Origin: Escherichia coli
GTDB lineage: Bacteria > Pseudomonadota > Gammaproteobacteria > Enterobacterales > Enterobacteriaceae
Length of the DNA stretch: 64,000 nucleotides
Reading direction: 5' to 3' (one strand)
Assembly (NCBI RefSeq): GCF_003334405.1
Contig: NZ_QOWM01000001.1
Part shown: positions 63,717 to 63,900 of the stretch, in pieces
Numbering within the stretch: position 1 is the stretch's first letter
How the letters are laid out: each line of letters begins with the position of its first letter
The notes under the pieces: generated by a model
What the model saw: only the letters and a program-made list of their open reading frames with translations
Database searches by the model: none
Told to the model about the DNA's origin: nothing
Position numbers and translations under genes: made by a program

Positions 63717-63900
63717 CAGCCGTTGCCTGATGCGACGCGTAATGCGTCTTATCAGGCCTACAGTGAACAGAACCGTAGGTCGGATAAGGCGTTCACGCCG
63801 CATCCGACAGCCGTTGCCTGATGCGACGCGTAATGCGTCTTATCAGGCCTACAGTGTACAGAACCCCAGGGCGGATATGGCGTTCACGCCGCATCCGACA
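63717..63900. repeat. tandem duplication of a ~91-bp BIME unit (two REP pairs)
   Basis: Unit cagccgttgcctgatgcgacgcgtaatgcgtcttatcaggcctacagtg...ggcgttcacgccgcatccgaca occurs twice back to back with a few mismatches. Confidence 0.85.

Follow-up and report, generated by a model that had tools for sequence, protein, structure and literature searches.

A 91-bp tandem repeat between trmJ and iscR in Escherichia coli as an allele of a variable-number BIME-2 array

In the 64-kb stretch of Escherichia coli DNA analyzed here (the window), a tandem repeat lies between the stop codon of trmJ and the promoter of iscR, and the question raised by this locus is what kind of element it is, whether its duplication is peculiar to this genome, and whether its copy number could matter to the two genes on either side. 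In Tandem Repeats Finder, one array stood out, at 63716-63900, with 2.0 copies of a 91-nt period that match at 94% without indels; its score was 335, compared to 47 or less for every other array of the window. The two 91-bp copies, units A and B, lie head to tail and are equal at 86 of 91 positions (95% identity). The first base of the repeat is the final base of the trmJ TAA stop, which is the only overlap of the array with the gene, and the repeat register extends 3 nt past unit B (ACA, up to 63900). The array is extragenic: it follows the trmJ stop (63716) and precedes the iscR promoter, in which a motif search for type-1 IscR sites hit 63944-63968 with 1 mismatch and 63969-63993 with 3 (chance expectation of 0), 43-46 nt 3' of the array end. 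The position of the iscR ATG would be 64077, beyond the window edge. The original prediction had described a 91-bp unit doubled in direct succession with a few substitutions, situated after the trmJ stop and before the IscR operators, and both statements hold; the two units, whose lack of homology would undo the call, do align, with no indels across 63716-63897.

Each 91-bp copy contains two imperfect palindromes (inverted repeats). On the plus strand, a unit reads ACAGCCGTT, then a 33-nt palindrome (GCCTGATGCGACGC-GTAAT-GCGTCTTATCAGGC) followed by CTAC, a 13-nt linker, and GTAG followed by GTCGGATAAGGCG-TTCA-CGCCGCATCCGAC, which corresponds to a Z2-type REP joined through 13 nt to an inverted Y-type REP, plus a linker of 7 nt (Table 1). 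Three of the four REPs have the GTAG/CTAC foot; in unit B, the Y REP carries CCAG instead of GTAG, together with a shortened stem and an altered internal mismatch. The five mismatches between units A and B (unit positions 51, 60, 61, 65, and 72) are limited to the linker and to the Y REP's 5' side. We also observed that these differences are confined to a 22-nt stretch (63766-63787 versus 63857-63878, covering the linker, GTAG, and the 5' arm of the Y REP), with the other 69 nt identical, and that T51 of unit B is common to E. albertii and its CCAG to a one-unit allele of another lineage. The clustering and sharing of these differences hint at recombination or conversion, not at clock-like divergence since the duplication.

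Table 1. Positions of the trmJ-iscR array, its parts, and other annotated elements of the window
Feature	Position	Strand	Basis or remark
trmJ coding sequence, 246 aa	62976-63716	+	ORF list; RefSeq annotation of identical sequence
BIME-2 unit A, 91 bp: ACAGCCGTT spacer, Z2 REP, 13-nt linker, inverted Y REP	63716-63806	+	
BIME-2 unit B, 91 bp, promoter-proximal	63807-63897	+	
Z2-type REP no. 1 (GCCTGATGCGACGC-GTAAT-GCGTCTTATCAGGC + CTAC), GTAG side on minus strand	63725-63761	-	inverted repeat, REP motif
Y-type REP no. 1, 5' GTAG intact (GTAGGTCGGATAAGGCGTTCACGCCGCATCCGAC)	63775-63808	+	inverted repeat, REP motif
Z2-type REP no. 2, identical to Z2 no. 1	63816-63852	-	inverted repeat, REP motif
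Y-type REP no. 2, degenerate	63866-63899	+	REP motif
Rfam naRNA4 (RF02564) match over the Y/Z2 junction of units A and B	63778-63849	+	72.2 bits versus gathering score 59.5
Two adjacent IscR type-1 operator-like sites, iscR promoter	63944-63993	+	motif search
Truncated Z2-like REP remnant, 3' arm broken; between 5S rRNA gene/terminator and kgtP	289-314		
BIME-1: Y REP, ~35-nt linker with IHF-like core, inverted Z1 REP; between convergent yfiE and srmB	11919-12016		
BIME-1, same Y-linker-Z1 architecture; between convergent glyA and yphH	42085-42182		
Single inverted Y REP without GTAG; between convergent yphB and yphA	52494-52523		
5S rRNA	112-227		Rfam match
AsrC antisense RNA	18462-19293	-	Rfam match
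rncO leader	22076-22290		Rfam match
OhsC	25703-25779	-	Rfam match
GlmY	34959-35106		Rfam match

The original prediction had called the unit a BIME, a REP plus an inverted REP. The palindromes match Z2 and Y REPs in opposite orientation, and because a Z2 is paired with a Y REP, the element is more precisely a BIME-2. A BIME-2 is defined as z2 plus y in multiple tandem copies with a strain-variable unit number (PMC3333891, restating the Gilson/Bachellier classification). The opposed Z2 and Y REPs are evident from the sequence, the palindromes, the REP head and tail motifs, and the alignment to the RF02564 Y-Z2 consensus; the tandem copies (2.0) are joined by short linkers of 13 and 7 nt, compared to ~35 nt in the two BIME-1 elements of the window; and the array is both extragenic and variable in unit number between strains. 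At the level of sequence, the trmJ-iscR element agrees with the class on each of these points, apart from the loss of GTAG in one of four REPs. It shares with other BIME-2 elements the alternating Z2/Y orientation, short linkers, tandem units, extragenic location, variable unit number, and published gyrase cleavage, and nothing essential differs, the terminal Y REP of unit B having lost GTAG and two stem pairs. The BIME-1 type belongs to the same REP superfamily, contains a Y REP, and is likewise extragenic, but it consists of a Y REP, an L linker with an IHF site, and Z1, with a conserved linker of ~35 nt and a single copy, whereas at trmJ-iscR the partner of the Y REP is Z2, the linkers measure 13 and 7 nt, and the units are repeated in tandem. 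The REP325/naRNA4 array between yjdM and yjdN (RF02564) has the same Y-Z2 hairpin pair and the same 3' UTR setting between co-oriented genes, and the trmJ-iscR array scores above the Rfam threshold for it; REP325 has six units (12 hairpins) compared to two units here, and the Y-Z2 linker of the trmJ-iscR array is 6 nt shorter. The feature is thus very probably a BIME-2 in the trmJ 3' UTR upstream of the iscR promoter, of which the window holds the two-unit allele (A-B) of a variable-number array.

All four other REP/BIME sites that had been proposed for the window were recovered: two of them are BIME-1 elements, another is a solitary Y REP, and the last is what remains of a truncated Z2. Both BIME-1 elements, at 11919-12016 and 42085-42182, have a Y REP, a long conserved linker, and an inverted Z1 in a single copy. 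In the yfiE-srmB BIME-1, the linker (11953-11995) is hit by the Rfam sRNA model ES036 (CssrF), and the near-identical linker of the glyA-yphH BIME-1 (about 42119-42153) falls below the ES036 threshold; ES036 is thus another Rfam family that in effect describes a part of a BIME. The Rfam matches elsewhere in the window fit the expected K-12-like gene order.

The four REPs are predicted to fold stably in the trmJ transcript. The stem of the first Z2 REP begins 8 nt past the trmJ stop, and its RNA hairpin has a predicted energy of -21.4 kcal/mol (z of -5.4), followed by the Y REP of unit A at -18.8 kcal/mol and the second Z2 REP at -21.4 kcal/mol. The Y REP of unit B folds more weakly (-14.6 kcal/mol, z of -2.7) because two closing pairs are lost. 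The whole trmJ 3' UTR has a fold z of -6.6. Of the stem cells in eight distinct units, 99.4% are paired, one pair shows a compensatory change from CG to UA, and substitutions lie mainly in linkers and loops. In the minimum-energy fold of the whole 3' UTR (63725-63852), the first Z2 REP pairs with the second Z2 REP and encloses the Y hairpin, in place of two local hairpins; identical palindromes of an array can pair between units in such a model, and co-transcriptional folding would favor the local hairpins. A terminator scan of 63700-64000 returned no intrinsic terminator, and by reading of the sequence, no T run directly follows any of the four hairpins. No promoter-like site adjoining the array was found.

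The counting of unit copies across strains, which the original prediction had proposed, was performed on 5,426 complete E. coli genomes and gave one to four units. BLAST coverage with a two-unit query was unusable for allele counting, given that both query copies reuse one genomic unit and one-unit genomes thus also give 100% coverage. Exact counts were therefore taken from junction-specific queries with E-value cutoffs, and an independent sample was scored by flank-only span in 60 genomes drawn evenly. At least two units were found by the junction queries in 1,342 of the 5,426 genomes. Two units are carried by 658 genomes (12%), nearly all of them A-B, with the rare A-A falling in the perfect-junction class; three units by 664 (12%), among them MG1655, W3110, and BL21; and four or more by at most 20 (at most 0.4%). 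A BoxC/TMECO element stands in place of the BIME-2 in 1,438 genomes (26.5%), and the remainder, ~49%, have one unit. The span sample agreed with this census (34 one-unit, 7 two-unit, 5 three-unit, 13 with another element, and 1 broken locus). Loci that were read directly gave the alleles A (for example, strain 720632), A-A (23CRST024), A-B (the window, M217, and EMG2), A-A-B (MG1655, W3110, G8, and C9), and A-A-A-B (N61 and one BL21(DE3) assembly), together with several further diverged single-unit alleles; ten more contigs with identical IscR added no allele to those already seen. In strain P276M (NZ_CP044293.1), the suhB-trmJ-iscR region is frameshift-ridden and scrambled, which looks like a poor-quality assembly rather than a true rearrangement, and this genome was left out.

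The duplication in the window is not private to it; A-B is among the alleles of a known variable array, for which the reference K-12 strains have A-A-B. Unit A is identical to the repeated unit of MG1655, and the trmJ-iscR spacer measures 360 bp in the window compared to 451 bp in MG1655 and W3110. The final 25 kb of the window is essentially identical to many natural isolates and to the record named EMG2. A scan of one genome per species with the IscR operator sequence returned E. albertii as the sole species, and in E. albertii NBRC 107761 one Z2-Y unit occupies precisely this site between the same flanks, from which the insertion appears to be older than the split between E. coli and E. albertii. 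The single unit appears to be the older state, given that it is found in ~49% of E. coli as well as in E. albertii, and the multi-unit alleles would have arisen in one E. coli lineage with near-identical flanks. Slippage of the 91-bp direct repeats, or unequal exchange among them, probably accounts for gain and loss of units, which are both easy because A-A copies are identical; the outer borders of the array share just a 3-nt ACA microhomology. A REP-associated transposase, which has been proposed elsewhere in the literature to amplify BIMEs, may also contribute to unit change. The substrate of the REP-associated tyrosine transposase (TnpA-REP/RAYT) is a REP with a 5' GTAG and a stem mismatch next to an inverted REP bearing a TGCC|TGAT-type cleavage site (PMC3333891). 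By reading of the sequence, these features are seen in unit A and in both Z2 REPs, and the Y REP of unit B lacks the GTAG.

The alternative occupant of this intergenic slot is of another kind. In 1,438 genomes, O157:H7 among them, an element of ~120 bp replaces the BIME-2 in the slot that corresponds to 63711-63900 of the window, and its core, CCCTCGCCCCTTCGGGGAGAGGGTTAGGGTGAGGG, fits the BoxC/PIT/TMECO triplex-motif consensus of PMC4666352, a family with about 17 places per genome. BoxC/PIT/TMECO, described as an intrastrand-triplex repeat (PMC4666352), resembles the BIME-2 in occupying the trmJ-iscR slot, in being a dispersed GC-rich intergenic repeat, and in its tie to the variability of the locus, but it is an unrelated sequence family (CCCTCNCCC...GGGNGAGGG...GGGNGAGGG). 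It also shortens TrmJ by one residue, to 245 compared to 246, because the last codon and the stop lie within the variable segment. No BoxC/PIT/TMECO element was found within the 64-kb window.

The locus itself was known before. It is cataloged as "BIMEs2 2662088-2662353, 265 bp, iscR-yfhQ" in Supplementary Table DS3 of PMC6379681, where Topo-seq gyrase cleavage sites are given as 3 with ciprofloxacin, 6 with rifampicin and ciprofloxacin, 0 with microcin, and 4 with oxolinic acid; in the parts of the table considered here, BIME-2 entries mostly carry no cleavage sites. The same study states that gyrase has a preference for Y REPs and that blocking transcription raises the BIME-2 signals, so that these are regarded as transcription-independent gyrase sites (PMC6379681). 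The published map thus indicates that the locus is cut by DNA gyrase in vivo, at least in a W3110-derived strain; the strain mapped is a derivative of W3110, which has three units compared to two in the window. Nothing here is new in kind, given that the element class, its variability between strains, and the gyrase cleavage of the locus are all published. Our literature search found no paper on trmJ-iscR read-through or on use of the locus as a typing marker (VNTR/MLVA), and no transcript, half-life, or termination data for it; a 2026 preprint on REPs (bioRxiv 10.64898/2026.03.23.713779) does not mention trmJ and lists iscR solely in a differential-expression table.

We considered how such an array could act. 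At the DNA level, it may serve as a transcription-independent site of gyrase binding and cleavage. At the RNA level, the four stable hairpins on the trmJ transcript probably block 3'-exonucleases and partly attenuate read-through, by analogy with REP325, which was described as a partial terminator dependent on Rho and as a stabilizer of upstream mRNA (bioRxiv 10.64898/2026.03.23.713779). With its start 8 nt past the stop codon, the first hairpin may in addition reduce TrmJ translation; a REP fewer than 16 nt past the stop is reported to make translation of the gene upstream less efficient (Liang et al. 2015, summarized in PMC12306157). The distance from stop to hairpin is equal in all unit-number alleles, so that any such effect would be independent of copy number. 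By the same analogy, the idea in the original prediction that copy number could alter read-through from trmJ to iscR is plausible. No evidence points to a specific regulatory function of the second copy. Roughly half of E. coli have one unit and a quarter have another repeat beside what is, in the loci read, apparently the same iscR promoter, which argues that copy number, and even the presence of the BIME, is without strong constraint.

Several other accounts of the repeat have to be weighed against this. There is next to no probability that the doubling is a chance similarity or an assembly artifact. Assemblies of nominally the same laboratory strains do disagree in unit number, but the units match at 86/91 without indels, the same A-B allele recurs in nearly all 658 two-unit genomes, and a collapsed or duplicated read is excluded because the two units differ. 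The match to RF02564 lies above the gathering score and could be taken to mark a naRNA4-like sRNA gene whose product organizes the nucleoid together with HU. We rejected this reading, which is extremely unlikely, because the model was built on the Y-Z2 pair of the REP325 BIME-2 array and matches any BIME-2 junction. Weaker RF02564 matches cover the remainder of the array on both strands, no promoter-like site lies beside it, and the role of naRNA4 in nucleoid compaction has itself been disputed and withdrawn in recent work (bioRxiv 10.64898/2026.03.23.713779). By its sequence, the match appears to mark the repeat family and no distinct gene.

The remaining accounts concern function. The array could be a copy-number-dependent insulator, in which each extra unit would strengthen a partly Rho-dependent attenuator and so tune read-through into the isc operon. 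The analogy comes from the full 12-hairpin REP325 array, which lowered expression of the downstream yjdN about 8-fold in a partly bicyclomycin-sensitive manner, and unit number at trmJ-iscR does vary from 1 to 4. We nevertheless consider this unlikely: REP325 fragments of 2-4 hairpins were without detectable Rho dependence (bioRxiv 10.64898/2026.03.23.713779), the trmJ-iscR array contains no U-tract terminator, iscR owns an autoregulated promoter with its operators intact downstream of the array, and the alleles of 1-4 units and the BoxC replacement are all widely persistent. Somewhat more credible, though still doubtful, is that the array is a neutral or selfish repeat with no host function at this locus, its copy number drifting through slippage or transposase activity. 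E. coli genomes vary freely at this site in the presence of the array, its copy number, and even the kind of repeat, unit B has lost its GTAG and part of a stem in what reads as decay, and strain-to-strain variation in BIME units is known (PMC3333891). Set against neutrality are the retention of a single unit at this site since before the split from E. albertii, the preserved hairpin pairing with its one compensatory change, and the gyrase cleavage of the locus in vivo, none of which is proof of a benefit to the host.

Under the preferred reading, the locus is a variable-number BIME-2 with the window as its A-B allele. Assemblies of nominally the same laboratory strain do not agree in unit number. 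For J53, CP110999 shows two units and CP028702 three; for BL21, CP060121 shows three and CP081489 four. Consecutively numbered records of TOP10, XL1-Blue, XL10-Gold, and Stbl4 have four units each, MG1655, W3110, BW25113, C600, and MC4100 have three each, and the record named EMG2 has two. Either unit number is genuinely unstable over laboratory time scales, or the assemblies err at a perfect repeat of 91 bp. If the counts are real, the disagreement among the J53, BL21, and K-12 cloning-strain records would suggest gain and loss on such time scales, and the array could then be a fast-changing heritable dial, in which gain or loss of the identical A unit might shift local supercoiling or read-through at the iscR promoter, or the output of TrmJ. 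We regard this as very unlikely; were it true, it would mean clonal variation in Fe-S cluster biogenesis or tRNA modification.

In summary, the trmJ-iscR array is real, was rightly read from the sequence in the original prediction, and is an ordinary, cataloged BIME-2 with a common copy-number polymorphism. It carries little weight as a discovery, as REPs and BIMEs have been known for decades, the strain-variable unit number of BIME-2 is known, and the locus is listed as gyrase-cleaved. Our study provides as by-products an exact allele census of one BIME-2 locus across 5,426 genomes, evidence that a BIME-2 and a BoxC/TMECO element are alternative occupants of one intergenic slot, and a caution that unit counts differ among assemblies of nominally the same laboratory strain. 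The natural series of one to four units, together with the BoxC swap, beside an apparently unchanged iscR promoter would offer an allelic set for testing the effects of REP arrays on neighboring genes.
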